A DNA stretch of 64,000 nucleotides. Origin: Candidatus Scalindua arabica (GTDB taxonomy: Bacteria > Planctomycetota > Brocadiia > Brocadiales > Scalinduaceae). Shown here one piece after another: positions 2,856-51,351 of this stretch. The translations under genes were made by a program, and so were the position numbers. Each line of letters opens with the position of its first letter. The first letter of the stretch is position 1. The stretch is from assembly GCA_018263435.1 (NCBI GenBank), contig JAANXD010000074.1:9197-73196 (forward strand), in the 5' to 3' direction. The notes beneath the pieces were generated by a model that had not been told where the DNA came from, made no database searches, and saw only the letters and a program-made list of their open reading frames with translations.

Positions 2856-2928
2856 AAGTTGGTTTACTCCTTTCCTTTTTAATGTTAATTGAAACACAAA
2901 TTATAAGACAACGAAAGTTTTCATAGAG

Positions 2929-32961: not shown

Positions 32962-34158
32962 TTACCTCTCCAATCTACACTTTTCACTCTCTGGTGAGTA
33001 TCCTGCATCATTTCCATCGAGGCTTATTAATAACACTGTTTCATCATCAAGGCTAACATCCTTATTATTTGTGAATGAAGCATGTTCAACCCTATTAGAC
33101 TGTTCTTCTTGTAGACTCTGCATATTCTGCAAGGCACTGTCAATCTTCTGCTTTATCAAGGCACCTTCTTCCATAATTCTTGACATTGAATTACTTCTTG
33201 ATAACATCAATTTGTTTTCATAAGAATAAGGAATTGTACTTTCAACTAAGTCAATTTCCGATGAAACGCCTAACGGGCAAGGGTTGTCCTCCAGTATTTC
33301 TGTCTCTCCGTCCGGTGCTATCATCGAACATACCAGGTTATTCCCGCTATTTACATATTTAATAACTCTCTTTTTCTTATCAACAAGCACACATAACATC
33401 GACACTTTGACATGAGGGATAATATTCTCGCACAAAAATTTATTTATACCGTCCATTACTCTTTTTGGTGTATTCCCTGCCTTTGATCTAAATAATGTCT
33501 TAATCATTATTCCTATCTGCCTGTTTTCCCACCATTCCCTGCGATGTTCACTTTGGCCATTAATATTCCCGAATATCAACATTGATCTGTTATTGCTAAC
33601 GGCAAAAGAATCAAAGACAACTGTACTTTTAGGTTGACATGCCGGACCATCAAAGTAATAAGACATACCGCCCGGTTTCAAAAGGTTATCAGTTTTTGAT
33701 AATTGCTCACTGTCATTGCACTGTAAGTGGCGGTCTTCTTCTTTATCTGTGCCCTTTGAGATACTGGAATTATTGAGCATCCTTAAGAGAACGTCTTTTA
33801 TTTCCTGTATCTTGAAAGGCTTGCTGATCATCTCAACTACACCCAGTTTTGCCGCTTCTTTGACTGTTTCAAGAGAACCATATGCCGTGATAATGACTAT
33901 TTTCAAATCAGAATCACTCTTCTTCACCTCACGTATTAATTGGATACCATCCATACCACGCATCTTAATATCTGTTATAATTAAGTCGTATGGCGCCTCC
34001 TTGAAACGCTCCATAGCCTGAAAGGCATCCCGAGCCACGTCTACCTTATAACCTTCACTGGCCAAAGCCTCCTGTAAGACGTATCTGATTGTCTCTTCAT
34101 CATCTACCAACAAGATCCTGTTATTTACCATATCACTTATTCTCTTACTTGTAGTCAA
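32962..34158 (-). CDS. response regulator with a C-terminal SpoIIE/PP2C-like domain (catalytic residues degenerate)
   Basis: 398 aa. The REC domain is intact (LLVDDEE, ITDIKMRGMDG, SKPF). The C-terminal domain aligns to the SpoIIE pattern (Y.N.G.N...DG...L...PLG) but has GGMSYYFD, GNINGQ and SRSN where metal-binding Asp motifs are expected. Confidence 0.7.
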   Translation of the reverse strand: MTTSKRISDMVNNRILLVDDEETIRYVLQEALASEGYKVDVARDAFQAMERFKEAPYDLIITDIKMRGMDGIQLIREVKKSDSDLKIVIITAYGSLETVKEAAKLGVVEMISKPFKIQEIKDVLLRMLNNSSISKGTDKEEDRHLQCNDSEQLSKTDNLLKPGGMSYYFDGPACQPKSTVVFDSFAVSNNRSMLIFGNINGQSEHRREWWENRQIGIMIKTLFRSKAGNTPKRVMDGINKFLCENIIPHVKVSMLCVLVDKKKRVIKYVNSGNNLVCSMIAPDGETEILEDNPCPLGVSSEIDLVESTIPYSYENKLMLSRSNSMSRIMEEGALIKQKIDSALQNMQSLQEEQSNRVEHASFTNNKDVSLDDETVLLISLDGNDAGYSPESEKCRLER

Positions 34159-34611: not shown

Positions 34612-35115
34612 CTACTTACTGGAAAATGCTTTAAAAAGATCCTTAACAATACATTCCAGACGGTCAACCTCTTTAAAAATCATCCTGAAGATTCTTTCGT
34701 TTGAATCATCTTTCTCCACTCTCTCCCTTAACACTTCTACAGCAGCAGAAATACCAGCCAGAGGATTTCGTACTTTATGAGTAACAATACCCATCAATTC
34801 GTTCAGGTCATCAAAATATTCAGTTTCCTTATACTTGTCTACTATCATCTTTATTCCTTCATCATCACTTAAATCAACACCCGACTTCTCTCCACTCCCT
34901 GAAGATTCAATCTGCTTGTTCAATGCAGCAGACAATTCCTCCTTCGAGATTAGGTTCATATTGACAAGGATCATCCCCAGGAGCTGATGATCAGGATTGT
35001 CTTTTTGCATACTTAATGCTTTTTGAACATCAGAACTCTTAACCTTGCCGTCTTTAACTAGAATCTCTCCAAGTTTCTTCTGACATAATTCAGTATCTTC
35101 TTTGACATTGATCAC
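34612..35115 (-). CDS. stand-alone MshEN/T2SSE_N-like motif pair fused to a HisKA dimerisation/phosphoacceptor domain (no ATPase domain)
   Basis: 167 aa, GTG start. It carries KLGEILVKDGKVKSSDVQKALSMQ and LLGMILVNMNLISKEELSAALNKQ, then an H-box VTHKVRNPLAGI. The ORF ends before any HATPase_c motifs. Confidence 0.65.
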   Translation of the reverse strand: MINVKEDTELCQKKLGEILVKDGKVKSSDVQKALSMQKDNPDHQLLGMILVNMNLISKEELSAALNKQIESSGSGEKSGVDLSDDEGIKMIVDKYKETEYFDDLNELMGIVTHKVRNPLAGISAAVEVLRERVEKDDSNERIFRMIFKEVDRLECIVKDLFKAFSSK

Positions 35116-35278: not shown

Positions 35279-36676
35279 CTACTGTTTAATACCATAATGC
35301 TTTATCTTGTTATATAAAGTGGTACGGTTAATACCCAGTATCTTAGATGCCTTGGTCATCCGCCAGGAAGTCTCCTTAAGGATTTCTGTTATATGTTGTT
35401 TCTCAACAGTTGAAATAGACTGATCTACCTCTTCATCCTGCCCAATATCGTTCATTTCTGACTCGGGCCCCAGTAACAGGTGCTCGGCAGAAATTGCAGA
35501 ATTATTTGAAAGAAGAACAGCTCTTTCAATAACGTTTTTCAGTTCTCTCACGTTTCCAGGCCATTCATATTTTTTCAAAATAGCTTTTATTTCCGGTGTC
35601 AGGCCATTGACTTCCTTATTGAATTCTTTATTAAATTTATCAATATAGTGTTTTGCAAGCGGGACGATGTCATCCTTCCTTTCCTTCAATGCACACAAAT
35701 ATACCGGCAAGACTTTCAGGCGATAAAAAAGATCTTTCCTGAAATTCCCTTTCTTTACTTCCTCTTCCAGATTCCGGTTTGTCGAAGCAACTATCCTTAC
35801 GTCTACATTTATAACATCGTCCCCACCTACCCTCTTAAACTTCCTTTCCTGAAGCACTCTCAGCAGTTTTGCCTGTAATGGCAAACCCATCTCTCCAATC
35901 TCATCAAGAAACATGGTGCCTCTCTGGGTGGCTTCGAACAGACCGGCCTTTCCTGTAGTAGAAGCTCCTGTAAAAGAACCCTTTTCATAACCAAACAACT
36001 CGGCTTCAAGCAGGTTCTCTGTCAGTGCAGCACAATTAATCTCCATAAACCTGTACTTATTTCTCGCACTCATCATATGAATATAGTTGGCAATCAACTC
36101 CTTACCTGTCCCACTCTCTCCCTGTATAAGCACCGTACTTGAAGGGCTCTGTGCAATTACCTTTACATGTTCAAAGATCTTTTTCATTTCTTTACTAACG
36201 GCAATAATATTAGCATTACCTGTAACATCTGTTTTTTTCCTTAGCCTTAATACTTCCCTCATCAGAGATTGAGTACTCAATGCCTTATCAACCACAACCT
36301 TGACGTGTTCCATCTTAAACGGTTTCTCAAGATAATCGAATGCCCCTGCTTTCATTGCGCTTACTGCAGTGTCAACAGAACCATGACCTGTTAAGAGAAT
36401 TACGAGTATGTTCGGATCATGCGCTTTTATTTCCCTTAATAAATCCAGGCCACTCATTCCGGGCAACTTTAAGTCCAATATAACCAGGTCAGGAATCACC
36501 TTCTTTACCAGGCTTAAAGATTTTTCCCCATCCTCCTCCGTGTATACTTCATGCCCTTCAGACTCCAATGCCTCTTTTAAACAAAACCTGATTGTTTCCT
36601 CGTCATCCACAACTAAGATTACGGGCTTTACGCTATCCTGGCTTTCCGCATTTTTAACCGATTTTGTTTCTTTCAT
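35279..36676 (-). CDS. sigma54-dependent response regulator (NtrC family)
   Basis: 465 aa: [26 protein letters not shown], and a C-terminal HTH KASKILGINRTTLYNKIK. Confidence 0.92.
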   Translation of the reverse strand: MKETKSVKNAESQDSVKPVILVVDDEETIRFCLKEALESEGHEVYTEEDGEKSLSLVKKVIPDLVILDLKLPGMSGLDLLREIKAHDPNILVILLTGHGSVDTAVSAMKAGAFDYLEKPFKMEHVKVVVDKALSTQSLMREVLRLRKKTDVTGNANIIAVSKEMKKIFEHVKVIAQSPSSTVLIQGESGTGKELIANYIHMMSARNKYRFMEINCAALTENLLEAELFGYEKGSFTGASTTGKAGLFEATQRGTMFLDEIGEMGLPLQAKLLRVLQERKFKRVGGDDVINVDVRIVASTNRNLEEEVKKGNFRKDLFYRLKVLPVYLCALKERKDDIVPLAKHYIDKFNKEFNKEVNGLTPEIKAILKKYEWPGNVRELKNVIERAVLLSNNSAISAEHLLLGPESEMNDIGQDEEVDQSISTVEKQHITEILKETSWRMTKASKILGINRTTLYNKIKHYGIKQ

Positions 36677-38136: not shown

Positions 38137-38414
38137 TCCTTTAAATTATTTTCTTTGAAATATACGCATATTTTATGCCTATTCTTATAATATAGTCTTG
38201 AGAGTACCTTTTAATCTTTACTGCCAGCCTTAGACTACTTTACAGGAATTAAACCCGGTTAACCATGTTCAGATTTTGATCATATTGTGTTTCAGTTTAG
38301 GTCAATCCAGATTTGCTGATTTTTTTCTCTAAAGCTTCCCCCTCTTTCTACCGAAAAGATACTTAGTGACGTTTTTATTTTATATTTCAAATCTTGTTGA
38401 ATGGAGGTGCAAGA

Positions 38415-38787
38415 ATGTCTTTAATTACCTGGGACGACAGCAAGTACAGCGTAAAAGTCACACCAGCATAGCTGGTGGTTTACTGTACAGATTAATTAAA
38501 CAGTGCCATGTCTGACGGTAAGGGTAAGGAAGTACTGGAAAGAATATTAGGGAATCTGGCAAGTTATGCCGATTACCATTTTACCGCTGAAGAGACGGAA
38601 ATGGTAAAATACAAATACCCTGATTACGAAGCACATAGAGGCAAACATCAAGCAATGCTGGGTAAAGTTGGAGCCTTAATAGAAGACTACTGAAGTATCA
38701 GGCTTTCTGAGTGACTGGCTTAACAAACATATTGTAGGAACTGATCAACAATACAGCAGCTTTATGAACGGCATGGGCGTAAACTAA
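38415..38787 (+). pseudogene. bacteriohemerythrin pseudogene (stop plus frameshifts)
   Basis: After a GGAGGTG SD, MSLITWDDSKYSVKV runs into TAG at 38469. Frame 2 gives ..GKGKEVLERILGNLASYADYHFTAEE..YPDYEAHRGKH. Frame 3 gives GFLSDWLNKHIVGTDQQY. All three pieces match hemerythrin segments, but the ID.QH segment is missing. Confidence 0.7.
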
Positions 38788-38804
38788 GAGAGACATTCCA
38801 GAAG

Positions 38805-38834
38805 CGGTTTGAACCGTTTAAACGGTTCAAACCG
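38805..38834. repeat. perfect 30-nt palindrome (family D copy 1), possible bidirectional terminator
   Basis: CGGTTTGAACCGTTTAAACGGTTCAAACCG lies between convergent genes. A degenerate copy is at 40015-40044. Confidence 0.6.
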
Positions 38835-38841
38835 TTATTGT

Positions 38842-39054
38842 TTAAGATGCAGTAAAGAACCGGTTACTCACACCGCCTCTACCGACCCTTACAGTCAAAC
38901 GACCAAGGCATCTGGGGCACTTTCCTTCATATTGCTTTCCTGAGTAGTTATAAATACGTCCATATATATTGCAACATGTAAAATAAATCCCCAGAAACTT
39001 CCTCTTCTTTTGCTTATCAGCCTCTACCGTTGATCCATCCGCTACTATATCCAT
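38842..39054 (-). CDS. small zinc-ribbon-like protein (hypothetical)
   Basis: 70 aa with a GAGG SD. It has a basic N-terminus, then FTCCNIYGRIY....CPRC. Confidence 0.45.
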   Translation of the reverse strand: MDIVADGSTVEADKQKKRKFLGIYFTCCNIYGRIYNYSGKQYEGKCPRCLGRLTVRVGRGGVSNRFFTAS

Positions 39055-39195
39055 TTTTCCTCACATAAAATACTGATCATCACACAAAGACACGAAGAAC
39101 ACAAAGGGTAAAAAATACTATCTTTTGTTTTATTTCTCAATTTCGTTTTCTTAGTGATCTCTGTGACTTCGTGTGATTACTTTTTCAAATATTAA

Positions 39196-39537
39196 CTATA
39201 TCAGGCCGGAGTTCTTAATTGACCTGGCAACTTCCTTAGTAACCGCATCAGGGTCGTAAATACCAGCTTCTATGCGGGCCTTAACATCCTTTACTTTTTC
39301 CTCTCTGACATCAGGCATATTCTTAATTTCTGCCTTTAAGGTTGATAGTGTTTCCTGTAACTTTCTGGCTTCAGCGGAAATCTCTACTTTGTCTCCTTCT
39401 TTTGATACTTGCACTTCCTTAGAATAACCGGATGCAGCTTTTTTAATATCCCCCGGCTTTGTAAGATTTTTATTACCAATAACCTTCCCAACTTGACTAT
39501 TATTAATTCCCGCCATTTTGTCTACAGACATTTTCAA
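39196..39537 (-). CDS. flgM: anti-sigma-28 factor FlgM
   Basis: About 111 aa (ATG 39531 is likelier than TTG 39537). Small acidic/Lys-rich protein whose C-terminal VKARIEAGIYDPDAVTKEVA matches the FlgM sigma28-binding helix pattern. Confidence 0.65.
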   Translation of the reverse strand: MKMSVDKMAGINNSQVGKVIGNKNLTKPGDIKKAASGYSKEVQVSKEGDKVEISAEARKLQETLSTLKAEIKNMPDVREEKVKDVKARIEAGIYDPDAVTKEVARSIKNSGLI

Positions 39538-39711
39538 ACCTCCAATCTAAACTTGAAACTGACAATTTGCTAAAGAAAAACATTAATTCTACCACAGATT
39601 TCTCCATGTAAACATCGATCTGTGACAGAATGTATATTATAAACAACCCTTTTGAAATGACAATGTTATAAGTCTATGTCATTCCCATCATAGGCATAGA
39701 ACATTTATGTA

Positions 39712-39885
39712 CTAAGATCGCGCATTCCATAGCCTTTTAGTATTATATTGATAACTTAGCAGTTTGTGCCACAGGCACTCTACACACCAGCAAAAGCTTA
39801 AGGAAACACTTTCAAACGTTGATGATTTCCTCTTCAAACTTGATGGATAAATGTCGTCATAATACTCATACTCGAATCGTCTCAT
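39712..39885 (-). CDS. 57-aa hypothetical protein
   Basis: AGGAGG lies 5 nt upstream of ATG 39885. Product MRRFEYEYYDDIYPS...FCWCVEC...; no family recognised. Confidence 0.3.
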   Translation of the reverse strand: MRRFEYEYYDDIYPSSLKRKSSTFESVSLSFCWCVECLWHKLLSYQYNTKRLWNARS

Positions 39886-40014
39886 TCCGACCTCCTGTAA
39901 ATACATACCTCTTCCACTTATATTATCGTCAGACCCTCAATACTCTTTAGCCAAAAATATATTTTATTTTTCAAGCAATAATTATGCCGCATAAAATTAG
40001 GGTAGAAACAGATT

Positions 40015-40044
40015 CGGTTTGAACCGTTTAAACAGTTTAAACCA
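40015..40044. repeat. degenerate copy of the family D palindrome
   Basis: CGGTTTGAACCGTTTAAACAGTTTAAACCA (3 mismatches to 38805-38834) with the same flanking ATTATT. Confidence 0.5.
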
Positions 40045-40355
40045 TTATTTTCTCCTAACGTTAGACACTTCAAACTTTGCTTCAGTTAATAAACGTTCAA
40101 ATAATCTACATTATGCCCAGAAAACCAACGATAACGGAATTTATTTCCTCCTGAACAACAGTTATAAAGTCCAGTTGTTCTCATAACTATAAGAATAAAA
40201 TAATAATGAAAATCTTCTACTAAATCCTTGTTTCATATGTATTGCCTGAAACCAAGAGTCGTATGAGGAGGGTTAATAAAAGACAATTCATTGTTATTCG
40301 CAGAAATGGCAACTATTTTGCGATACTAAGCGACCATAGCAGTACATGAACATAG

Positions 40356-40553
40356 AGCGGCGTTGCCGCCCGCCTGCCCGGCAATACCGTTCGGACAGGT
40401 ACCTATTCTGGCAGGCAATCAAGTTTGAAGTGACTTCCTGTCCCCGTCCGATCCGGCACCGGCGGGCGCCAGTTTGCTAGGCGGGAAGTTAACTCCTGCC
40501 TGTCATGCCTCAGGCAGACTCGCTGTGGCGAGCCGGTAGGCAAGGAAAGCGCC
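40356..40553. other. GC-rich structured island (candidate ncRNA or cluster of REP units)
   Basis: About 200 nt far above local GC with no ORF. Nested helices: CGCCCGCC (40367-40374)/GGCGGGCG (40461-40468) and GGACAGG (40393-40399)/CCTGTCC (40437-40443). Two mutually exclusive hairpins overlap at 40480-40517. Confidence 0.35.
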
Positions 40554-40634
40554 TAAAGATAAAGAGTATTTTCTCGATGTTCCGGTGTGTTCTCACGCCG
40601 AAACATCGGCAGGTACAAATGAAAATATTGTGAC

Positions 40635-40661
40635 TAATCTTTATGCAACTTGTACCGATAA
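40635..40661 (+). promoter_or_regulatory. candidate sigma28 (FliA) promoter of the chemotaxis operon
   Basis: TAAT-N15-ACCGATAA versus the consensus TAAA-N15-GCCGATAA. 90 nt upstream of the cheY ATG 40751. Confidence 0.5.
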
Positions 40662-40750
40662 TACACAAAAATTAGCAATATATTATATAAATTTTAAAAT
40701 CTTAAATAATATTAATCTTTATGTTCTTAAAGAAAGGAATGGTGGCCTAA

Positions 40751-41131
40751 ATGTCGAAAGTTTTATTAGTTGATGATTCTGCCGTAATGAGAAAGATAAT
40801 CCAGAGAAATATAAAGGAAACGGGTATGATAGTGGATGAATTCATTGAAGCGGGAGACGGCAAACAGGCATTAGATAAAGTAAATGATGATGGTGCTCTG
40901 GATCTAATACTGCTTGATTGGAATATGCCAAACATGTCAGGTATAGAATTTGTCAAGGCATTGAGATCCTTAAACCTTCCGAACAGGATACCTGTTGTAA
41001 TGGTAACGACCGAAGGTTCTGAAACCAAAGTAAGCGAAGCAAAGGAGAGTGGTGCAGACGGCTATCTTACAAAGCCATTTACGGCAGACCAGCTGCGCGA
41101 CACACTCGGAGACTATCTTTTAATAAAATAA
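40751..41131 (+). CDS. cheY: chemotaxis response regulator CheY
   Basis: 126 aa single REC domain: LLVDDS, LLDWNMPNMSG, TKPF. Confidence 0.9.
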   Translation: MSKVLLVDDSAVMRKIIQRNIKETGMIVDEFIEAGDGKQALDKVNDDGALDLILLDWNMPNMSGIEFVKALRSLNLPNRIPVVMVTTEGSETKVSEAKESGADGYLTKPFTADQLRDTLGDYLLIK

Positions 41132-41163: not shown

Positions 41164-41700
41164 ATGACAACCACAACTTACGATGATGTAGTAGAAGATA
41201 TTGTGAGTAGTACCAATGAAGTATTCTCAACAATGATACCAATGGAAATCACGTCTGACGGCTCATTCTATCAAAAGGAGGATATGATATCTACTGACGT
41301 AATATCTCTCGTCAGTTTCACAGGAGAACATTCCGGCATACTTGCTATATTTTGTTGCAAGGAAATTGCACTTAAAATTACGTCCAGCATGCTGGGTATT
41401 GAAGCTGCCGAAATAGATCATGACACAAAGGATGCTATGGGAGAGGTGGCAAATATGATTGCCGGTACTTTAAAGAACAAGATTTTTGAGAAATTTGGAG
41501 CAATGCATCTCTCTGTCCCTATAGTCATAGCAGGTGAGAGCCTTTCAATACGCTCTGCTACAGATGGTAGTAATGACCAACAAGACATCAAGATTACTTC
41601 AGGTGTAACATGCAACAGTCAGAGCTCCTGGTTGATGACACCATTCTCTTCAAATGGAAGTAGTTTTAACGTTGGATTCGTTGTCAAAAAGAATGATTAA
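41164..41700 (+). CDS. cheX: CheY-P phosphatase CheX
   Basis: 178 aa. The CheX pattern is present: ..FSTM.., SFTGEHSGILAIF, and GEVANMIAG (E-x2-N). Confidence 0.75.
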   Translation: MTTTTYDDVVEDIVSSTNEVFSTMIPMEITSDGSFYQKEDMISTDVISLVSFTGEHSGILAIFCCKEIALKITSSMLGIEAAEIDHDTKDAMGEVANMIAGTLKNKIFEKFGAMHLSVPIVIAGESLSIRSATDGSNDQQDIKITSGVTCNSQSSWLMTPFSSNGSSFNVGFVVKKND

Positions 41701-41876
41701 CCTGTATAGTTGCGGAATGCGGATTTCGAAATACGGAATGAAAGAGCTGAATCTGTATAATTGCGGACTTCGACGTGAACTCAGTCGAACGATTGTGGAA
41801 TTCGAATTGTTTTTTCTGTAATCCGGAATCCGAAATTGAAAATTGGACAGCAAATTATAAAAATTCAAAGATAATA

Positions 41877-42875
41877 ATGGAAGAAACCGTAGATAATAAT
41901 ATTTGCCCACCAAAACTCAAAGAGTTGATAGAAGGTATGATAAATAAACTGAATGAGGATTGTACCAGTCTTTTAGGCAGAAACTTTGGCATATCAAAAC
42001 CCAATAGCGAGATAGTTACCCTTGGCGATTTTATAGATAATAATAATGATGCCTATTATTATTTAATAAACTCAGAACTCGGAGGATTTTACCAGGGCAA
42101 TATATGTACTATATTAAAGCTAAGTGATGTTATTAAGATAAGTAGTGTTCTACTTGGTTCTGAAGATAAAGAAATACAGGAAAAAGTAGAGAAGGGAGAA
42201 CTTGATGCCGACGGTACTGATGGAATTATGGAATTCAGCAGGCAGTATTCAAGCATTATTGAATCCGCACTCAGAAACAAATTACCAAAGGAGGTACAAG
42301 TAAAGCTATCAACATGCACAACTATAGATAAAGACAATGCGAGTGAAGCCTTGAAGGATATTATTTCTAATGAGTATATAAATCTGAAGTCCCTTCTGTT
42401 AATCAAAGGATTCGATACAGAAGAATACAATATGTTATTTCCTATTGAATCAGTAGAAGAATTCTTTGGAGAAGCGATTCATGAAAAGAACACAAATGTT
42501 CTAGTTACAGATGACTCCTTAACCGATGTCAGGGTAATCAGTAAATATCTGACCAACACTTCGTTCCATGTCATTCCCGCACATGACGCCAAGCAGGCAT
42601 TTGCTATCTTACAAAAGGAGAAGATACACTTGATAATTCAGGATCTAATCATGCCAGAACAAAGCGGTATTGAGATCTGCAAGAAAATTAAAAAGACACC
42701 GTACACCAGAGGGATTCCCTTAATAATGATTTCCAGCCACCCAACACAAGAGGCTGTAGTGGAATCACTACAGGCAGGTGCAAGAGATTTCCTTGTCAAA
42801 CCGTTTAGCAAAGAAAAACTATTACAAAGAATAAGCAGATACAAAGTTAAAGAGAAGCTTGCAACGCTGTATTAA
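41877..42875 (+). CDS. response regulator with an uncharacterised N-terminal domain (possibly CheC/CheX-like)
   Basis: C-terminal REC (VLVTDDS, IQDLIMPEQSG, VKPF). The track start 41775 lies inside a repeat element, so ATG 41877 is preferred. Confidence 0.7.
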   Translation: MEETVDNNICPPKLKELIEGMINKLNEDCTSLLGRNFGISKPNSEIVTLGDFIDNNNDAYYYLINSELGGFYQGNICTILKLSDVIKISSVLLGSEDKEIQEKVEKGELDADGTDGIMEFSRQYSSIIESALRNKLPKEVQVKLSTCTTIDKDNASEALKDIISNEYINLKSLLLIKGFDTEEYNMLFPIESVEEFFGEAIHEKNTNVLVTDDSLTDVRVISKYLTNTSFHVIPAHDAKQAFAILQKEKIHLIIQDLIMPEQSGIEICKKIKKTPYTRGIPLIMISSHPTQEAVVESLQAGARDFLVKPFSKEKLLQRISRYKVKEKLATLY

Positions 42876-43018
42876 CCCTGCAAGAAGATATGCTGTACAG
42901 ATAATCTACACAAAAAATATATTTGGTGAATTGGCTGCCCAAGGTAACAGTCGGAACTGTTTGCCGGGAGCGGCATAGGCTAACAATAAAAACTGATAAA
43001 AAGAAAGGACTGACAAAA

Positions 43019-45124
43019 ATGAGCAAATCTAACGAAGAAGATGTACAGAATACCAGTCCTGGAAGTGATGAACTTACTCTTGATATTAAAGAAGATTCAG
43101 AGATATTCCTGGAATTTTTGTCAGAGGTCCAGGACCATCTGGAAGATTCAGAAAGCAATGTACTCAGTATTGAGGATGACGCCTGTGACTATGAAACAAT
43201 CAATGCTATCTTCAGAAGCATTCATAGTATAAAAGGAAGCGCCGGGTTTCTTGGACTTACCCAGATGCAGGGACTCAGCCATGAGTTGGAAACACTGCTG
43301 GACAAGGTAAGAAAAGAAGAGATCAGCATGTCACAGGAGATAATAAACGTATCATTAAGCTCAATAGACTCACTTAGAAAACTCCGGGACAATCTGGAGA
43401 TCAGGGTTGACAGAGAACTTGGAAATGATAAGGACTCTGACTCCTCTCCCCAGGAACAGCCTGTAAATATCCAACCTTTAATAGATACTATATTATCCAT
43501 ACTAAATAACGAAAGTAAACATGAAGAGGCAGTACCGGAATCTCCTCAAGAGATAACAGACAAAATCATCAACTCAGAACCTGAAGAAGACTCAGGGGAA
43601 GCCGTGGAAGATCAAGAATCATCAGAAAGCGATTGCCTGGGTGGAATACTTCTGGATGAAGGCGCAATTACTCAGGAGCAACTGGACAAGGCCCTTGATG
43701 AACGAGGCAAAAAGATTGGGGAAATACTCGTAGAAGAAGGAGTAACAACTGCAGAAAAGGTAGAGAACGCTCTTGATGAACAGAAATCAATAGGACAAAT
43801 CCTCACCGAAAAAGGTGAAATAACAGAATCCCAGCTTGCCGGTGCACTGAAACAGCAGGAAAGAAAAGTAGGCGAAATACTCGTAGATAGCGGCGCAACA
43901 ACTACAGGCGATATAGATACTGCATTAGAATCCCAACAAAACAAACGAAAGACAAAGTTACAGTCCAGAACAGTTAAGGTTGATACCGCCAAGCTCGACA
44001 ACCTGTTCGACATGGTAGGAGAACTCGTAATAACCAATACCATGATTTGCGGAGAAGCCAATTCAGCAGACAATAACGGTACGAGCAAGAACCTGTCTCA
44101 ATTAACCAAGATTACCAAGGATATTCAGGATCAGGTTATGTCCATGAGGATGGTCACCTTGAAACAAACATTTCAAAAGATGTCAAGGCTGGTAAGAGAC
44201 GTTTCTTTGCAATCTGGAAAGAAAGTTAAATTACAGATTTCCGGTGAAGACACAGAACTCGACAAGAATGTAATCGAAGAACTCGCAGACCCACTTGTAC
44301 ACATACTCAGAAACTCAATAGACCATGGTGTTGAGGCTGAAGAAGACAGGGTTTCCAAAGGCAAGCCGGCAGAGGGCCTGGTGAAGTTAAGCGCCTTCCA
44401 TAGAGGAGGAAACATAGTAATAGAGATTCAAGACGACGGCAATGGGATTCGGAAAGACAAAATATTACAAAAAGCCATAGATAGAGGAATGGTAACCAGC
44501 CAGTCATCCTTAACAGACAATCAGATATACAATTTAATCTTTTCACCCGGACTATCAACTGCAGCCAAGGTTACAAATATTTCAGGCCGAGGTGTAGGCA
44601 TGGACGTGGTAAAGAAAAATATCGAAAAACTCCGCGGCACTGTTGATGTTACATCAGAAGAGGGAAAGGGATCTACCTTTACCATTAAGCTGCCTCTAAC
44701 CCTTGCTATTATTGATGGAATTGTCGTTAACGTGGGCGACACAAAATATATTATACCAACTGTTTCGATAGAAGAATCATTGCGTCCAACCAAAGAAGAC
44801 ATCAGTACAGTCAAGAATCAGGGTGAAGTGGTTAACATAAGAGGTAGTTTGTTATCTCTGGTCCGCCTCCACAAACTTTACAATATTGACACAGAAAAGA
44901 CCAATCCATGGGAATCAATAGTCGTAGTAGTAGAAGGCGCCGAAGGAAGATATGGTGTATTGGTCGATGAACTCCTGGGACAACAACAGGTTGTGATTAA
45001 GAGTCTCGGCGACAGGTTTAAGGATGTTAAAGGAATTTCAGGAAGCGCTATACTTGGTGACGGAAGAGTCGGTCTGATTCTGGACGTCAGCGGAGTAAAA
45101 GAAGCATTTATTGGAAGTAATTAG
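43019..45124 (+). CDS. cheA: chemotaxis histidine kinase CheA with an atypical linker (four MshEN/T2SSE_N-type motifs in place of P2)
   Basis: 701 aa from ATG 43019. It has Hpt (RSIHSIKGSAG), P3 (LDNLFDMVGELV), HATPase (GRGVGMDVV, GKGSTF) and a P5 CheW-like domain. Confidence 0.93.
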   Translation: MSKSNEEDVQNTSPGSDELTLDIKEDSEIFLEFLSEVQDHLEDSESNVLSIEDDACDYETINAIFRSIHSIKGSAGFLGLTQMQGLSHELETLLDKVRKEEISMSQEIINVSLSSIDSLRKLRDNLEIRVDRELGNDKDSDSSPQEQPVNIQPLIDTILSILNNESKHEEAVPESPQEITDKIINSEPEEDSGEAVEDQESSESDCLGGILLDEGAITQEQLDKALDERGKKIGEILVEEGVTTAEKVENALDEQKSIGQILTEKGEITESQLAGALKQQERKVGEILVDSGATTTGDIDTALESQQNKRKTKLQSRTVKVDTAKLDNLFDMVGELVITNTMICGEANSADNNGTSKNLSQLTKITKDIQDQVMSMRMVTLKQTFQKMSRLVRDVSLQSGKKVKLQISGEDTELDKNVIEELADPLVHILRNSIDHGVEAEEDRVSKGKPAEGLVKLSAFHRGGNIVIEIQDDGNGIRKDKILQKAIDRGMVTSQSSLTDNQIYNLIFSPGLSTAAKVTNISGRGVGMDVVKKNIEKLRGTVDVTSEEGKGSTFTIKLPLTLAIIDGIVVNVGDTKYIIPTVSIEESLRPTKEDISTVKNQGEVVNIRGSLLSLVRLHKLYNIDTEKTNPWESIVVVVEGAEGRYGVLVDELLGQQQVVIKSLGDRFKDVKGISGSAILGDGRVGLILDVSGVKEAFIGSN

Positions 45125-45179
45125 AATTGTGGAATGCGCCCGACAAATGGCAGGCGGGCGCATTCTGCAATCCGAAATT
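45125..45179. repeat. che-operon intercistronic palindromic unit (family E) with a GC core
   Basis: AATTGTGGAATGCG-CCCGACAAATGGCAGGCGGGCGCA-TTCTGCAATCCGAAATT. The core hairpin is GCGCCCG/CGGGCGC. Confidence 0.6.
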
Positions 45180-45199
45180 TATTGAAAAGGAGGAGCAAG

Positions 45200-45691
45200 A
45201 TGGAAGCAGTATTAGAAGAGAAACGGACGAAGAGTCATGAGGGGAAATATTTAACATTTGTACTCGGCACGGAAGAATACGGTATAGAAATTCTCAAAGT
45301 CAGAGAAATCATCGGAATGATGGACATTACGACCGTACCACAGACTCCGGATTATATGAAAGGTGTTATTAATCTGAGAGGAAAGGTTATACCGGTAATC
45401 GACCTGAGACTGAAGTTTGCAATGGACGAACTTAAACATACTCAGGAAACGTGCACAATAGTAGTAGAAGTCAACAGTTCTTTGATAGGAATCATAGTTG
45501 ATACTGTCTCTGAAGTAGTTGACATAGGTAGTGAAGCAGTTGAAGACACACCGGCGTTCGGACAGGGAATAGACACTGACTTTATAATCGGCCTTGGCAA
45601 GGTACAGGAGAAGATAATTATACTCCTTGACATAGAGAAGGTAATGTCTACTGAAGAGCTCGAGATAGCTGAAAAGATGGCTGAAAATTGA
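45200..45691 (+). CDS. cheW: chemotaxis coupling protein CheW
   Basis: 163 aa from ATG 45200 (AAGGAGG SD). The YLTFVLGTEEYGIEILKVREI pattern is present. Confidence 0.92.
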   Translation: MEAVLEEKRTKSHEGKYLTFVLGTEEYGIEILKVREIIGMMDITTVPQTPDYMKGVINLRGKVIPVIDLRLKFAMDELKHTQETCTIVVEVNSSLIGIIVDTVSEVVDIGSEAVEDTPAFGQGIDTDFIIGLGKVQEKIIILLDIEKVMSTEELEIAEKMAEN

Positions 45692-45729
45692 TGATTATCA
45701 ATTGCGGGATGCGGAACAGAAGAGATGAA

Positions 45730-46125
45730 TTATAAAAGCTTAACCAGAACAGCCACAATGATAATGCCGGCGGTTAACATGGCGCCCAGCTTGACAGTAA
45801 GACGTAATTCCGACTCTTTGATATCGCGCTTTAATGATGTTTCCAGTTCTTTCATATCGCGCTTTAATGACGTTTCCAGTTCTTTCATATCGCGCTTTAA
45901 TGATGTTTCTAGTTCTTTCATATCGCACTTTAATGATGTTTCCAGTTCTTTCGTATCGTGCTTTAATGATGTTTCCAGTTCTTTCGTATCGTGCTTTGTG
46001 GCAAGACGTTCATCGATCAGTTCGGCCTGTGTTGCGGCTAACGTTTCAGCCTGCTCTTCGGAAAATCCGACGGCCTTTAGCTTTTTTACGTATGCGTGAG
46101 TATCAAATGTAGTGGTTTGTGACAT
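45730..46125 (-). CDS. DUF1640-like coiled-coil membrane-anchored protein with an 11-aa tandem repeat stalk
   Basis: 131 aa from ATG 46125. It has FDTHAYVKKLKAVGFSEEQAE, then (K[RH]D[TM]KELETSL) x about 5.5, then a C-terminal TM. Confidence 0.7.
   Translation of the reverse strand: MSQTTTFDTHAYVKKLKAVGFSEEQAETLAATQAELIDERLATKHDTKELETSLKHDTKELETSLKCDMKELETSLKRDMKELETSLKRDMKELETSLKRDIKESELRLTVKLGAMLTAGIIIVAVLVKLL
45816..45997. repeat. 33-bp in-frame tandem repeat, about 5.5 copies
   Basis: The unit CTTTCATATCGCGCTTTAATGATGTTTCCAGTT repeats head-to-tail from 45816, with a few SNPs per copy. Confidence 0.9.
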
Positions 46126-46551
46126 AACACTATTATGGTGCAACAATTATATATTTTTGTCAAGAAGAAAAAAGATGAGGCTGTACAACAATTGCGGAAT
46201 GCGGAGCTTTGCTGATTGAAGATGGTCGGTTGAAATTTGATGAATGAAAAAGAAATTGGTGTATTACTTAAAACAATTAATTAGATTCTTCTTTCCGCTT
46301 CACTACATTCAGAAGACAAGTCAGCATGTCATTCTGAGGAAGGAACGACCGAAGAATCTCAACGTCGACAACTTTGAGATTCCTATACATGAACATAATG
46401 AAAGACTTAAAGATTTCTAATTACGAAACTTCAACTTTAGATTGCGGACTGCCCTGGTATCTGGTATGTTATGCTCTGCGGTCCGGGGCTAGACATACGG
46501 AATGGAACATAATATGCAGAATCGATAATAAAAAACCGAAACAAGCAGATT

Positions 46552-46921: not shown

Positions 46922-47410
46922 ATGATATTAAACAACAACGGGAATATTATTACTGTAGGCGTTGGAGACTTAAAGATTGGCAAGTCACCCAAAATGATAA
47001 AGACCAGTCTTGGCTCATGCGTAGGTGTTGTCTTGTATGATAGCGTACAGAAGATTGGGGGTGTCCTGCACCTAATGCTGCCCAATTGTAACGACAGAGA
47101 AGGCAAGCCAAGTAAATACGCCGACACAGGGATACCTTTATTACTTGACTTGATGTTAAACCAGGCCAAATCAAAGAAAAATGTACTGACTGCAAAGATA
47201 TTTGGCGGAGCAAATATGTTTAACGTCAGTAGCGAATTATTTGACATCGGGAAATCTAATATTGCAGAAACAGAAAGGCTTTTGAATCACTTTGGCATAA
47301 GAATCACAGCCTCAAGAGTAGGCGGCACTAAAGGCCATCAGATTACACTTGATACAGAAACTGGTGTTGTTCAAAGCAGGATATTCGGAGAACCGATAAA
47401 AGAATACTAA
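46922..47410 (+). CDS. cheD: chemoreceptor glutamine deamidase CheD
   Basis: 162 aa with the LGSCVGVVLYD motif. Confidence 0.9.
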   Translation: MILNNNGNIITVGVGDLKIGKSPKMIKTSLGSCVGVVLYDSVQKIGGVLHLMLPNCNDREGKPSKYADTGIPLLLDLMLNQAKSKKNVLTAKIFGGANMFNVSSELFDIGKSNIAETERLLNHFGIRITASRVGGTKGHQITLDTETGVVQSRIFGEPIKEY

Positions 47411-47546: not shown

Positions 47547-48161
47547 ATGCAGATATCTAAAGAACATCTTAAGATATTAGATATTGTAGTAAAGATGGGA
47601 ATGGACAATGCCTCTCGCAGGTTTTCCAAGACCATAAGACGTGCTGCATTGATAGAATTAGTAAAGACCGAAATGGTGGATATCAGTGAGGCTACGGAAG
47701 AGATGAACAATGATTTACGTGAAATGGTATCATCTATGCTGCAGCTTGAGGGTGCATTTAATGGAAAACTACTGTTCATGATCCCTCTGGAGGGCGCTCT
47801 TTCACTACAGGATTTCTATACGGGTCAGCCACAAGGCACTTCTAAAGAATATGATGAATTTACAGAGGGCACAGTACAGGAGATTGGGAATATTCTTGCA
47901 AGCTCAATTGGCAATTCTTTTGCATTAGACCTTGGCTCTCAACTGCTACCAACTCCACCACAGATTTTATGCGATTTTGCAGGTACAATCTTTACATCAC
48001 TTATTTTTGAAGAAGGAATGTACAATGACAAAATTCTGCTGACTGAAACAAAGTTTAATATACATAAGACTGAAATAGACTGTTACTTCTTCTTACTTCC
48101 GGAAATAGGTTCATTAGAGGTGACACTGAATAAATTAGAAAAGTCAGAGAGTTTTGCCTGA
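47547..48161 (+). CDS. cheC: CheC-family CheY-P phosphatase
   Basis: 204 aa. The second E-x2-N site is intact (QEIGNILASSIG ...P). The first site is degenerate (KMGMDNAS). Confidence 0.78.
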   Translation: MQISKEHLKILDIVVKMGMDNASRRFSKTIRRAALIELVKTEMVDISEATEEMNNDLREMVSSMLQLEGAFNGKLLFMIPLEGALSLQDFYTGQPQGTSKEYDEFTEGTVQEIGNILASSIGNSFALDLGSQLLPTPPQILCDFAGTIFTSLIFEEGMYNDKILLTETKFNIHKTEIDCYFFLLPEIGSLEVTLNKLEKSESFA

Positions 48162-48339: not shown

Positions 48340-48705
48340 ATGAAAAGAGTATTAATAGTAGATGACGCAAGTGTTGTAAGGTTAATGATAAAGAAAGTTC
48401 TCAAGGAAGGTGATTTTGAGATAGCTGGAGAAGCGGCAAATGGAGTAGACGCACTCACAAAGTATAAGGAGCTGAGACCTGACGTAGTCACCATGGACAT
48501 AACAATGCCGGAAGCAGATGGTATTCAGGCTACAAAGGACATAATAGCATTTGATGAGGACGCAAAGGTAGTAATCCTGTCCGGCATAGATCAAAAGGAG
48601 ATGTTATGGCAGGCGATTAAGGCTGGAGCCGCTTCGTACATCGTAAAACCGTTTGAAAATGACAGGGTATTATCAACACTGAATGAAGTTACAGGAAAAC
48701 AGTAA
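48340..48705 (+). CDS. cheY: chemotaxis response regulator CheY (second copy)
   Basis: 121 aa single REC domain: LIVDDAS, TMDITMPEADG, VKPF. Confidence 0.88.
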   Translation: MKRVLIVDDASVVRLMIKKVLKEGDFEIAGEAANGVDALTKYKELRPDVVTMDITMPEADGIQATKDIIAFDEDAKVVILSGIDQKEMLWQAIKAGAASYIVKPFENDRVLSTLNEVTGKQ

Positions 48706-48774: not shown

Positions 48775-49620
48775 ATGGAATTATCAATGCAATATATCCT
48801 ATCAAACGAAGAATTTGAATTATTCAGACGCTTGATTTACGATTCCTGTGGGATAAGCCTGGCGCTATCCAAAAAGGAATTAGTCAAGGCAAGGCTGACC
48901 AAACGCCTTATTAAGGTTGGTATAGATTCATTTAAGGATTATTATAGATACGTTACTAAGACTGACAAGACAGGAAAGGAGTTAGTTCATCTTGTTGACA
49001 GCATCTCAACTAATAAAACAGACTTTTTCAGAGAGAAGAAGCATTTTGATCTTCTAAATACTTCAATCTTGCCATCTTTGATTGCAAGCAAGACAAAGAC
49101 CGGAAACAAGAAACTTCGCATCTGGTGTGCCGCGTCGTCATCTGGCGAAGAACCATATACCCTGGCCATGACCGTCCTTAACCATTTAAACCCTGACAAT
49201 GGATGGGATATAAAGATCCTGGCAACAGATATATCCACAAAAATACTTCAAAAAGCGATCAATGGTGTTTACAGGAAAGAGCTGTTAAGAGATATTCCAC
49301 TTGGAACTATCTCTGCAAACTTCTCCAGTGTTATTTATGAGAATGCAAACTGTTATAAGGTCAAAAATCATCTCAAGGATATTATCACTTTCAGAAGATT
49401 TAATCTAATGACACCTGAGTTTCCATTTAAAAACCCTTTTGATTTTATCTTTTGCAGAAACGTAATGATTTATTTTAATCCTGAAACACAAAACACGCTT
49501 GTTTCAAAATTTTACGATTGTTTACCAAAAGATGGCCATCTTTTTATCGGCCACTCTGAGACATTATCCAGAAGTAATACCAGTTTTAAATACATACAAC
49601 CGGCTGTTTATCAGAAATAG
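48775..49620 (+). CDS. cheR: chemotaxis protein methyltransferase CheR
   Basis: 281 aa with TDFFRE, IWCAASSSGEEPYTLAM and CRNVMIYF motifs. Confidence 0.92.
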   Translation: MELSMQYILSNEEFELFRRLIYDSCGISLALSKKELVKARLTKRLIKVGIDSFKDYYRYVTKTDKTGKELVHLVDSISTNKTDFFREKKHFDLLNTSILPSLIASKTKTGNKKLRIWCAASSSGEEPYTLAMTVLNHLNPDNGWDIKILATDISTKILQKAINGVYRKELLRDIPLGTISANFSSVIYENANCYKVKNHLKDIITFRRFNLMTPEFPFKNPFDFIFCRNVMIYFNPETQNTLVSKFYDCLPKDGHLFIGHSETLSRSNTSFKYIQPAVYQK

Positions 49621-49632
49621 TGAGCAAACAAA

Positions 49633-50736
49633 ATGAATAATAAAACCAAGGTATTGATAGTTGACGATTCTGCCGTTGTAAGAAAGATATTATCAAGCGC
49701 ATTAGGCAAATACCAGGATATTGAAATAGTTGGCACTGCACCAGACCCATTTATAGCCAGGAACAAGATCCTACAACTTAAACCGGATGTCCTTACACTC
49801 GATGTTGAAATGCCGAGGATGGATGGGATCACATTCCTGAGAAAGTTGATGACACACTATCCCATACCAACGGTAATGGTAAGCTCACTTACTCAGGCAG
49901 GTTGCGACGCAACACTACAAGCTCTTGAAGTAGGAGCCATAGACTTTGTCGCAAAGCCAACAAGCAGGCTTGGCAGTGATGTAGGTGATGTAATAGATGA
50001 GTTGCATACCAAAATAAAATATGCATCCAGAGCAAAAGTAAGAGTACAGTGTAATTCGGCAGGAAATGGAAATGGTAATAGTAAATCTGTCCGAACTGTC
50101 CAGCCAAAAGCAGGCACACCTGACAATGGTCAGGAAAGTAGACAAGATTATACTGTGTTCAAGGGTACTCACAAAATCATATTAATTGGCGCATCAACCG
50201 GTGGCACAGAGGCATTGAAGGAAGTCTTAACAAAAATGCCTCCGGATTCACCGGCGATTGCTATTGTCCAGCACATGCCGGAAATGTTTACAAAGGCATT
50301 TGCAAACAGGCTGGATTCGTTGTGTGCTATCACAGTAAAGGAAGGTAAACATGCTGAAAGTCTTATACCGGGACAGGCAATAATAGCACCAGGAAATTAC
50401 CATATGGTCATAAAAAAAAGCGGTGCAATGTACAAAGTTGAAATGGATCAGGGGCCTCCCGTTCACCATCAAAGACCGGCTGTAGACAACTTGTTTGACT
50501 CAGCTGCTAAATACGTAGGGCCAAATGCTATTGGCGTGATCATGACAGGTATGGGTGATGATGGTGCAACCGGATTACTCAAAATGAAAGAATCTGGCGC
50601 CGGAACAATAGCCCAGGACGAAGATAGTTGTGTGGTATTTGGTATGCCAAAAGAGGCTATCAAATTAGGTGCAGCAGATAAAGTAGTTTCTCTACACAAC
50701 ATTCCGAACAGTATCATTTCTTTAATAAACAATTAG
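49633..50736 (+). CDS. cheB: protein-glutamate methylesterase CheB
   Basis: 367 aa: REC (LIVDDSAVVR, TLDVEMPRMDG) plus an esterase domain (GASTGG, MTGMGDDG). Confidence 0.93.
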   Translation: MNNKTKVLIVDDSAVVRKILSSALGKYQDIEIVGTAPDPFIARNKILQLKPDVLTLDVEMPRMDGITFLRKLMTHYPIPTVMVSSLTQAGCDATLQALEVGAIDFVAKPTSRLGSDVGDVIDELHTKIKYASRAKVRVQCNSAGNGNGNSKSVRTVQPKAGTPDNGQESRQDYTVFKGTHKIILIGASTGGTEALKEVLTKMPPDSPAIAIVQHMPEMFTKAFANRLDSLCAITVKEGKHAESLIPGQAIIAPGNYHMVIKKSGAMYKVEMDQGPPVHHQRPAVDNLFDSAAKYVGPNAIGVIMTGMGDDGATGLLKMKESGAGTIAQDEDSCVVFGMPKEAIKLGAADKVVSLHNIPNSIISLINN

Positions 50737-50763: not shown

Positions 50764-51351
50764 ATGGAAAACAATACTCATGGCCCTGGTGATGTTGAAA
50801 TCGTAAAAGAGGCCGATATAAATATTATTGATGATGGTAATAATAATGACCAGGCAATGCTTAAGGTATTGAAGAATGAGATATCACATCTCAAAGCATC
50901 CAATGCATCTCTAAAAATCCAACTCCAGTATTTCCGAGAAAATTACCTGCCTAATGTTCTTCTTGTAGATGACAATCATGAAACCGTTCAAGTTATCACA
51001 GGAATTCTTAGCGATTATAATGTAATTAATACAGGAAATGGTATTGAAGCCTTAAGCATGCTTCGCAAAATGGGTAATGTAGGAAGTGACATCCAGCGAA
51101 TTGATACAATACTATTAGAAGTCAATCTGCCAGGTATGAGTGGATTCACCTTGTGTCGGGAGTTGAAAAAAAACATTAAATTAAATATCCCGATAATCTT
51201 CTGCTCGGCAAACAATACCAAAAAAGATGTGATTAAGGCAATCAGCTTTGGAGCCGACGACTATATTATCAAGCCATTTCAGGAAAAGGCATTATTAGAA
51301 AAAGTTGGCAAATGGACAAAGAAACGGTTAGCACTTAATAGAACCAGGTAG
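50764..51351 (+). CDS. atypical receiver protein (coiled-coil N-terminus; phospho-acceptor Asp replaced by Glu)
   Basis: 195 aa with the REC fold (LLVDDNHE, ..IKPF). However, the beta3 motif reads ILLEVNLPGMSG, with E119 (51118-51120) at the Asp position. Confidence 0.7.
   Translation: MENNTHGPGDVEIVKEADINIIDDGNNNDQAMLKVLKNEISHLKASNASLKIQLQYFRENYLPNVLLVDDNHETVQVITGILSDYNVINTGNGIEALSMLRKMGNVGSDIQRIDTILLEVNLPGMSGFTLCRELKKNIKLNIPIIFCSANNTKKDVIKAISFGADDYIIKPFQEKALLEKVGKWTKKRLALNRTR

Follow-up and report, generated by a model that had tools for sequence, protein, structure and literature searches.

Does the central chemotaxis kinase of an anammox bacterium carry its own receptor for cyclic di-GMP (c-di-GMP)? 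Bacteria use this second messenger as their main switch from swimming to settling and back, and chemotaxis has CheA as its hub; no link between the two could be shorter than a receptor domain inside CheA. The question is raised by a 64,000-nucleotide stretch of DNA from Candidatus Scalindua arabica (assembly GCA_018263435.1, contig JAANXD010000074.1, positions 9,197 to 73,196 of the forward strand; hereafter the window). A chemotaxis operon in this window encodes a CheA of 701 residues, in which the linker between the phosphotransfer domain (P1) and the dimerization domain (P3) contains four tandem copies of a 24-residue motif. An earlier reading of the sequence alone, referred to below as the original prediction, likened these copies to the motif that, as a tandem pair, forms the c-di-GMP site of MshE. 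On the basis of sequence, structural model and analogy, this linker holds two MshEN_N-type pairs, each of which would probably bind c-di-GMP as MshE does.

Motifs, fold and conservation of the CheA module

The window protein has domains P1, P3, P4 and P5 in order and lies in a che operon, which identifies it as a CheA (Table 1); it scores 471 bits on the CheA model NF007835, under the equivalog cutoff of that model. The open reading frame (ORF) shows 100% identity to P0001, a protein from a metagenome-assembled genome (MAG) that carries the annotation Ca. Scalindua arabica CheA, and an alternative in-frame TTG start upstream, at 42923, would extend it to 733 residues. Translation of positions 43634-43936 yields exactly the 101 residues quoted in the original prediction (206-306), and Pfam matches to Hpt and H-kinase_dim place them, as proposed, between P1, with its phospho-acceptor His69 in HSIKGSAG, and P3. 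These residues comprise four in-register motifs of 24 residues (206-229, 232-255, 257-280 and 283-306), the spacers between them being 2, 1 and 2 residues long. A loose regular expression for the motif gives four in-register matches in CheA, against 0.025 expected per shuffled CheA and 0.002 in shuffles of the module's own composition; judged by sequence, the repeat exceeds chance. The motifs share just 8-12 of 24 residues with each other, and the duplication is therefore old. Tandem Repeats Finder detects no DNA-level repeat in the module, ruling out a recent duplication or an assembly artefact.

The module was assigned to a family by profile and by predicted fold. NF053729 (NCBIfam 'cyclic di-GMP-binding domain-containing protein, MshE-related'; 53 positions, cutoff 38 bits) matches the 101 residues in two stretches, with E = 1e-24 and 86 bits overall. 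Taken alone, pair A (motifs 1 and 2) scores 51.4 bits and pair B (motifs 3 and 4) scores 46.3 bits, each over model positions 2-53 of 53. These scores were calibrated against a small set of reference sequences from the supplement of Wang et al. 2016 (Nat Commun 7:12481, PMC5013675): Vibrio cholerae MshE reaches 85.2 bits, Escherichia coli NfrB 55.5 bits, the reported binder Bd2402 36.8 bits and the non-binder XpsE of Xanthomonas campestris 17.1 bits, and the PilB proteins of Pseudomonas aeruginosa and V. cholerae give no match. Within this small set the profile parts binders from non-binders, and both Scalindua pairs fall by sequence on the side of the binders. The original prediction named T2SSE_N (PF05157) as the model to search with, and this does not match CheA even at E <= 1. 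However, the Pfam05157 line in the published alignment begins late in motif II and extends into MshEN_C, a domain absent here, so the negative refutes nothing (PMC5013675); the apt model for the module is NF053729. Pfam matches to DUF4388 and FumaraseC_C on the module were sub-threshold or marginal and were set aside as echoes of the helical-hairpin motif.

Structural comparison points to the same family. When PDB sequences were searched with the module, only the N-domains of MshE, PilF and PilB were matched. The AlphaFold model of the module (predicted local distance difference test, pLDDT, of 80.7) contains eight helices, which in the full-length model lie four in pair A (201-213, 219-227, 233-239 and 245-254) and four in pair B (258-264, 270-278, 284-290 and 296-315); each pair is predicted to form a four-helix bundle. 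The top Foldseek match of the module model is MshE with c-di-GMP (5htl_A; 54 columns, root-mean-square deviation (rmsd) 1.4 Å, 35% identity, probability 1.00); further matches are to the PilB N-terminal domain in the PilB-PilZ complex (7lkm and 7lko; rmsd 1.9-2.1 Å, 50 columns). The 101 residues are best read as two MshEN_N-type four-helix bundles in tandem, with a pair of 24-residue helix-turn-helix motifs making up each bundle.

In the full-length AlphaFold model (pLDDT 75.7), a five-helix P1 (27-53, 58-78, 81-98, 106-133 and 152-167) is followed by a disordered acidic stretch, the helical module (201-315), a short hinge modelled with low confidence (311-320) and P3. Residues 168-205 lie at the usual place of P2, are unconserved and disordered, and have no fold; pLDDT is below 50 over residues 166-205, a region without strands. 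The model has no beta-strand before residue 378 and therefore no P2 fold, and Pfam finds no P2 match in the protein even at E <= 1. The original prediction is thus borne out in that the CheA, as modelled, lacks the alpha/beta CheY-docking domain. P2 is dispensable and is missing from many CheA classes.

The repeat is also conserved. Its absence from orthologous CheAs would have counted against the original prediction; it is kept in all 120 orthologues examined. Conservation of individual residues was assessed in 55 unique four-motif orthologue modules, in which every motif has Gly3 without exception (100%), hydrophobic residues fill positions 2, 6, 17 and 21 throughout (bar one Ala at position 21 of motif 2), and Gly10 is conserved to at least 95%. 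Gln24 is likewise conserved to at least 95% in motifs 2-4, with Gly, Arg or Lys in its place in motif 1, and position 1 is occupied by F/Y/C, K, P and K in motifs 1 to 4 respectively. Of the ligand-contact positions, 2, 3, 17 and 21 are conserved in all motifs and Gln24 in motifs 2-4, and Arg1 is replaced. Most Scalindua CheAs have four motifs; two motifs, 2 or 4 residues apart, are found in many other Brocadiales. Among Brocadiales CheAs the number ranges from 2 to 6, and a few proteins have three or six. A cluster look-up assigned a taxonomy to almost none of the metagenomic relatives of the CheA. Since orthologues with spacers of 2,6,2 and 2,3,2 occur, as do two-motif relatives with a spacer of 2, the units are motifs 1+2 and motifs 3+4. 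In the Scalindua lineage a single pair was doubled long ago, with a 2-residue spacer within each pair and no folded domain from P1 to the module.

A described fusion and its wider distribution

The original prediction was not aware of a CheA described with this architecture, but the fusion was tabulated by Wang et al. in 2016, together with a binding measurement. Their main text counts CheA among the fusion partners of MshEN, and their Supplementary Table 4 gives the architecture 'HPT - CheY-binding - MshEN_N - dimerisation - HATPase - CheW' for Aeromonas veronii CheA (PMC5013675). Residues 261-390 of this protein bind c-di-GMP with a dissociation constant (K_D) of 2.6 µM by isothermal titration calorimetry (Supplementary Table 6), and in this insert position 1 is Met and the spacer is long (~9-11 residues) (PMC5013675). 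This record of architecture and K_D stands in supplementary tables (PMC5013675); no functional follow-up was found in the literature. Beyond the binding reported by Wang et al. (2016), the literature searched yielded no experimental effect of c-di-GMP on a CheA.

The Scalindua CheA falls in this already described CheA - MshEN_N class, with the receptor at the same position before P3, and is a doubled, short-spacer, P2-less form of a fusion for which binding has been measured in A. veronii. Both proteins carry an MshEN_N-type pair between P1 and P3, directly before P3, and in both the first position of the first motif is not Arg. Whereas the A. veronii CheA has one pair, a long spacer and a CheY-binding P2, the Scalindua CheA has two pairs, 2-residue spacers and no P2; what sets Scalindua apart is that the duplication is old, that the spacer has 2 residues and that no domain separates P1 from the module. 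The N-domain of V. cholerae MshE (5HTL) and those of PilB, PilF and GspE share with the module the tandem 24-residue motif, the four-helix bundle and the ligand-contacting hydrophobic and Gly positions. In these proteins, however, MshEN_C follows the domain, which stands at the N-terminus and controls a secretion or pilus ATPase, with a spacer of 5 and Arg at position 1, whereas in Scalindua it lies inside a histidine kinase, without MshEN_C, in two copies and with the spacer cut to 2. Bd2402 of Bdellovibrio bacteriovorus (REC - MshEN_N - unknown) is similar in carrying MshEN_N in a two-component protein with a short spacer, and its first motif (Phe at position 1, Lys at position 24) shares a consensus with most Scalindua orthologues (FLGE...). 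Unlike the Scalindua CheA, it is a response regulator with a single pair and a 3-residue spacer.

The motif pair is not confined to Scalindua. An exhaustive, profile-free search with the module matched 1,255 cluster representatives at E <= 1e-3, with very diverse architectures, including NfrB-like glycosyltransferases, REC-GGDEF, zinc-ribbon and multi-Hpt proteins. Among the top 150 representatives, spacers of 5 residues are commonest (133 instances) and spacers of 2 residues are recurrent (43 instances). A scan of one genome per species with the single pattern K[IVL]GEIL[VI][ED]xG, a biased sample and not a census, answered the call of the original prediction for a survey of CheA homologues: 41 of the best 80 genome loci are CheAs with a pair directly before the P3-P5 core. 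These 41 CheAs span ~ten phyla or groups (Brocadiales, Desulfobacterota, Spirochaetota, Deferribacterota, Methylomirabilota, Acidobacteriota, Actinomycetota, SAR324, Fibrobacterota and Bdellovibrionota), with the isolate Deferribacter abyssi among the deferribacterotal carriers, and all ten of the surveyed CheAs tested pass NF053729 (43.5-76.7 bits). The usual form is a ~710-residue protein having one pair with a 1-residue spacer, and short-spacer pairs (1-2 residues) are the commonest form in the CheAs of this biased sample. Two pairs also occur in some Acidobacteriota and some Desulfobacterota, where the four-motif CheAs have spacers of 6-7 residues. In most pair-bearing CheAs, ~120 additional residues separate Hpt from the pair; the reading of this segment as P2 was dropped, as Pfam detects none, and the segment is left unnamed. 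In 159 CheAs, a median of 12 residues (mostly 5-18) separates the last motif from the P3 signature; the Scalindua module ends 12 residues ahead of this signature.

Several other architectures were encountered in these searches. In a Deltaproteobacteria MAG, a REC-GGDEF diguanylate cyclase (P0159; MBW2107960.1) ends in four motifs with spacers of 2, 5 and 2; this short-spacer double pair, as in the Scalindua CheA, here sits on a c-di-GMP-making enzyme and possibly serves in product sensing. A protein of a Hydrogenedentota MAG (L007:2191-4911, plus strand) contains two or three repeats of Hpt followed by a double MshEN_N-type pair, without a CheA kinase core, and probes for che genes matched none of the neighbouring ORFs. 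The same build recurs in P0121, P0125, P0126, P0128, P0131, P0132, P0135, P0145, P0154 and P0210, and an acidic TSP3/dockerin-like C-terminus is present in P0126 and P0135 at least; this odd repeated architecture is not known to have been described. A bacterial-type CheA with a motif pair (L012:250-2352, plus strand) lies on a 3.1-kb low-coverage contig binned as 'Promethearchaeota archaeon', probably through mis-binning and possibly through horizontal transfer. Finally, CheAs of ~850-1000 residues from Deltaproteobacteria and Adiutrix MAGs (L018, L031, L035, L036, L040 and L058) have four motifs (spacers 6-7) before P3; the Hpt probe from the window matched none of the six, and Pfam found no Hpt domain in the L018 protein, the only one scanned.

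Proposed ligand binding, its possible effect on the kinase and rival explanations

Mutational work on MshE indicates which positions matter most for binding. Mutants of Arg9, Asp12 and Gln32 change affinity at most fivefold, mutants of hydrophobic residues lose more than tenfold, and Gly mutants show no detectable stabilization by ligand, so that hydrophobic residues and Gly account for most of the binding (PMC5013675). Deviant forms also bind: Bd2402, whose first motif has Phe at position 1 and Lys at position 24 and whose spacer is 3 residues long, is listed at 0.04 µM in Table 6 and at 0.4 µM in a footnote (PMC5013675). The two caveats attached to the original prediction are accurate, as position 1 in motifs 1-4 of the window CheA is C, K, S and K, and the spacers are of 1-2 residues versus 5. 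They appear not to be serious, because the Arg9 and Gln32 mutants have at most fivefold effects and because Bd2402 and the A. veronii CheA bind despite their deviations.

By analogy with MshE, each pair would bind one c-di-GMP across its two motifs. The contacts would come from the position-2 hydrophobic residue, from positions 17 and 21 of the partner motif, from backbone amides at Gly3 and from Gln24. A protomer would then carry up to two c-di-GMP and a dimer up to four. As the module is tightly tethered to P3 and P4 and P1 hangs on a floppy linker, occupancy is proposed to alter the access of P1 to the ATP site of P4, or phosphate transfer to CheY and CheB, such that chemotactic output would follow the motile-versus-sessile state reported by c-di-GMP. 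Binding of c-di-GMP by the Scalindua pairs and a response of the kinase, in whichever direction, are inferred; inhibition at high c-di-GMP is a guess. It is also conceivable, though distinctly improbable, that doubling has made the module a cooperative or two-threshold switch, with pair B of high and pair A of low affinity, which would directly gate the delivery of P1 to P4 or would itself dock CheY in a c-di-GMP-dependent manner in place of P2. To our knowledge, direct graded second-messenger control has never been shown for any CheA.

Other inputs of c-di-GMP to chemotaxis include the PilZ adaptor MapZ acting on CheR1, PilZ chemoreceptors, the CheY-like Cle proteins and YcgR at the motor. 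All of these, like the arrangement proposed here, tie the level of c-di-GMP to chemotactic or motor output. These routes, however, reach a methyltransferase, receptors or the motor via PilZ domains or arginine-rich peptides, whereas in Scalindua the domain lies within the central kinase.

Several observations weigh against c-di-GMP binding by the module. None of the four motifs fits the literal relaxed pattern of Wang et al., [RKPN]hGxxhhxx[GAS]hhxxxxhxxxhxx[QNKRYWST]: motif 1 has C and motif 3 has S at position 1, and Thr or Glu is found at position 7, 11 or 12. Gln24 is absent from motif 1, which ends in Arg, and Arg at position 1 is absent from all motifs. The original prediction mentions neither the Arg at the end of motif 1 nor the Thr and Glu at positions 11 and 12. 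The spacer of 2 makes a unit of 50 residues, versus a 5-residue spacer in the 53-residue MshEN_N, and the binding data on record are for pairs with spacers longer than 1-2 residues. The hydrophobic and Gly residues also support the fold, and their conservation is by itself no proof of ligand binding. The out-of-phase pair 2+3 scores 49.2 bits on NF053729, as good as the in-phase pairs, for which reason pair phase was not taken from hidden Markov model scores, and a few relatives have three motifs (P0083 and P0099). On the structural side, the Foldseek E-value for 5htl_A is weak (0.79), because the domain is tiny, and the training of AlphaFold2 may have included 5HTL. As to the supply of ligand, phmmer on all six-frame ORFs found no diguanylate cyclase (GGDEF) in the window, and a literature search for c-di-GMP enzymes of anammox bacteria or Scalindua returned only a community-level correlation of c-di-GMP with extracellular polymeric substances in anammox granules. 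The misfits to the pattern affect positions of the bundle core or the weakly contributing position 1, and not the main ligand contacts.

The module may instead be a protein-docking platform that does the work of the lost P2, with one of the CheY proteins, CheX, the REC protein with the unmatched N-domain encoded just upstream or a PilZ-like adaptor as candidate partner. This would suit its location, as it occupies the place that P2 has in other CheAs and P2 is absent, and it has parallels in the MshEN-like N-domain of Xanthomonas PilB, which binds PilZ rather than c-di-GMP and which Foldseek retrieves (7lkm, 7lko), and in the MshEN-like proteins XpsE and Deinococcus geothermalis PilB_3, which do not bind c-di-GMP (PMC5013675). 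The known non-binders, however, lack the hydrophobic-Gly signature and score at most 17 bits on NF053729, whereas Gly3 and the hydrophobic positions are invariant in Scalindua. Moreover, most pair-bearing CheAs keep the ~120-residue segment after Hpt, so the pair is not a general replacement for P2, and the corresponding insert of the A. veronii CheA binds c-di-GMP; docking is accordingly considered unlikely. Still less probable is that the module is a structural spacer, a relic MshEN_N array that sets the length or stiffness of the P1-P3 linker. Linker length in CheA matters for P1 delivery, and the copy number of 2 to 6 in Brocadiales CheAs is what a length-tolerant linker would be expected to show. 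Yet Gly3, Gly10, positions 2, 17 and 21 and Gln24 are near-invariant down to 50% identity and across phyla, whereas the adjacent true linker (168-205) is unconserved and disordered. At the level of sequence, Gly3 and the hydrophobic positions do not vary across phyla, which speaks, though not decisively, against both docking and spacing; of all the explanations weighed, the spacer is given the lowest probability.

A further explanation retains binding but changes its object: the ligand may be another cyclic dinucleotide, such as 3'3'-cyclic GMP-AMP (cGAMP), or the two pairs may differ in specificity. Pairs A and B do differ consistently at positions 1 and 24, no c-di-GMP-synthesizing enzyme is confirmed for the organism from the 64-kb window or the literature, and Wang et al. 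include a section headed 'MshEN can also bind cGAMP' (PMC5013675). Against this, the same work describes the domain as c-di-GMP-specific, and every characterized MshEN_N binds c-di-GMP, with sub-micromolar to low-micromolar affinity (PMC5013675). No sign of changed specificity is seen in the sequence, and a different ligand appears very improbable, only slightly less so than a mere spacer. Binding of c-di-GMP by the two pairs thus stays the probable reading of the module.

If so, anammox bacteria may tie motility to c-di-GMP, in a group whose aggregation matters both in reactors and in the ocean. Scalindua is not genetically tractable. The real value of the finding is therefore that it draws attention to relatives that are tractable (Aeromonas, Maridesulfovibrio and Deferribacter abyssi). 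What is added here to the fusion described in 2016 is that the insert is common, occurring in 41 CheAs mostly 5-18 residues before P3, often in short-spacer form and sometimes doubled.

Genomic setting in the window

The genes around cheA are listed in Table 1. The presence of flgM, encoding an anti-sigma-28 factor, upstream of the che operon suggests that the operon serves flagellar motility and chemotaxis. Sequence searches of Pfam, NCBIfam and the PDB matched nothing to the ~240-residue N-domain of the REC protein whose gene lies between cheX and cheA, and Rfam gave no match on the whole window.

Table 1. Coordinates of the cheA gene, the parts of its product and neighbouring chemotaxis and motility genes in the window.
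Feature	Position	Strand	Basis or remark
cheA, 701 aa from ATG	43019-45124	+	ORF list; Pfam Hpt, H-kinase_dim, HATPase_c and also CheW
P1 / Hpt five-helix bundle, residues 27-167	43097-43519	+	Pfam Hpt 30-118; AlphaFold helices
Acidic disordered linker from P1 to module, residues 168-205	43520-43633	+	pLDDT; no strands; no Pfam P2
MshEN_N-like pair A (motifs 1+2)	43634-43783	+	NF053729 51.4 bits; conservation; AlphaFold helices
Motif 1 CLGGILLDEGAITQEQLDKALDER	43634-43705	+	pair A, then GK spacer
Motif 2 KIGEILVEEGVTTAEKVENALDEQ	43712-43783	+	pair A, after GK spacer
MshEN_N-like pair B (motifs 3+4)	43787-43936	+	NF053729 46.3 bits; Gln24 in both motifs; AlphaFold helices
Motif 3 SIGQILTEKGEITESQLAGALKQQ	43787-43858	+	pair B, then ER spacer
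Motif 4 KVGEILVDSGATTTGDIDTALESQ	43865-43936	+	pair B, after ER spacer
Tether from module to P3, residues 307-318, QNKRKTKLQSRT	43937-43972	+	tether survey, 159 CheAs; pLDDT low at 311-320
P3 dimerization domain, residues 316-376	43964-44146	+	Pfam H-kinase_dim 52.9 bits
P4 ATP-binding kinase domain, residues 423-561	44285-44701	+	Pfam HATPase_c 71.8 bits
P5 CheW-like domain, residues 567-693	44717-45097	+	Pfam CheW 95.7 bits
flgM (anti-sigma-28 factor), upstream of che operon	39196-39537	-	Pfam FlgM 48.3 bits
cheY	40751-41131	+	Pfam
cheX	41164-41700	+	Pfam
366-aa protein, ~240-residue N-domain and C-terminal REC, between cheX and cheA	41775-42875	+	Pfam
cheW	45134-45691	+	Pfam
cheD	46922-47410	+	Pfam
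cheC/X-like	47547-48161	+	Pfam
cheY (downstream)	48340-48705	+	Pfam
cheR	48775-49620	+	Pfam
cheB	49633-50736	+	Pfam
REC protein	50764-51351	+	Pfam

A second protein with an MshEN_N-type pair is encoded ~8 kb upstream (34612-35115, minus strand; 167 residues), so that MshEN_N recurs among the two-component proteins of this organism. Its pair consists of KLGEILVKDGKVKSSDVQKALSMQ, a 7-residue spacer and LLGMILVNMNLISKEELSAALNKQ, scores 44.6 bits on NF053729 (cutoff 38) and is combined with a HisKA domain in which the H-box is present, without an ATPase domain. The neighbours of this gene encode a sigma-54 REC-AAA activator (35279-36676) and a REC-SpoIIE/PP2C protein (32962-34158), and its product is a candidate c-di-GMP sensor with a role in phosphotransfer or as a phosphatase.

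Opposite the che operon, between cheW and cheD, a 138-residue protein (45730-46146, minus strand) contains six tandem 11-residue repeats (HDTKELETSLK and variants); it is CCDC90/DUF1640-like with a hydrophobic C-terminus, and the plus-strand ORFs at 45725-46112 that overlap the repeat look like its shadows. The ~2.6 kb before the che operon (38137-40750) contain no ORF of at least 120 residues and no Rfam match; within them lie flgM, a 61-residue hemerythrin-like fragment (38508-38693) and a 70-residue Cys-rich ORF (38842-39054, minus strand). Near the start of the window, a hydrazine-synthase-alpha-like protein (435-2897, minus strand) adjoins a beta-propeller/cytochrome c protein (2978-5050, minus strand), and these anammox marker genes fit an origin from Scalindua.

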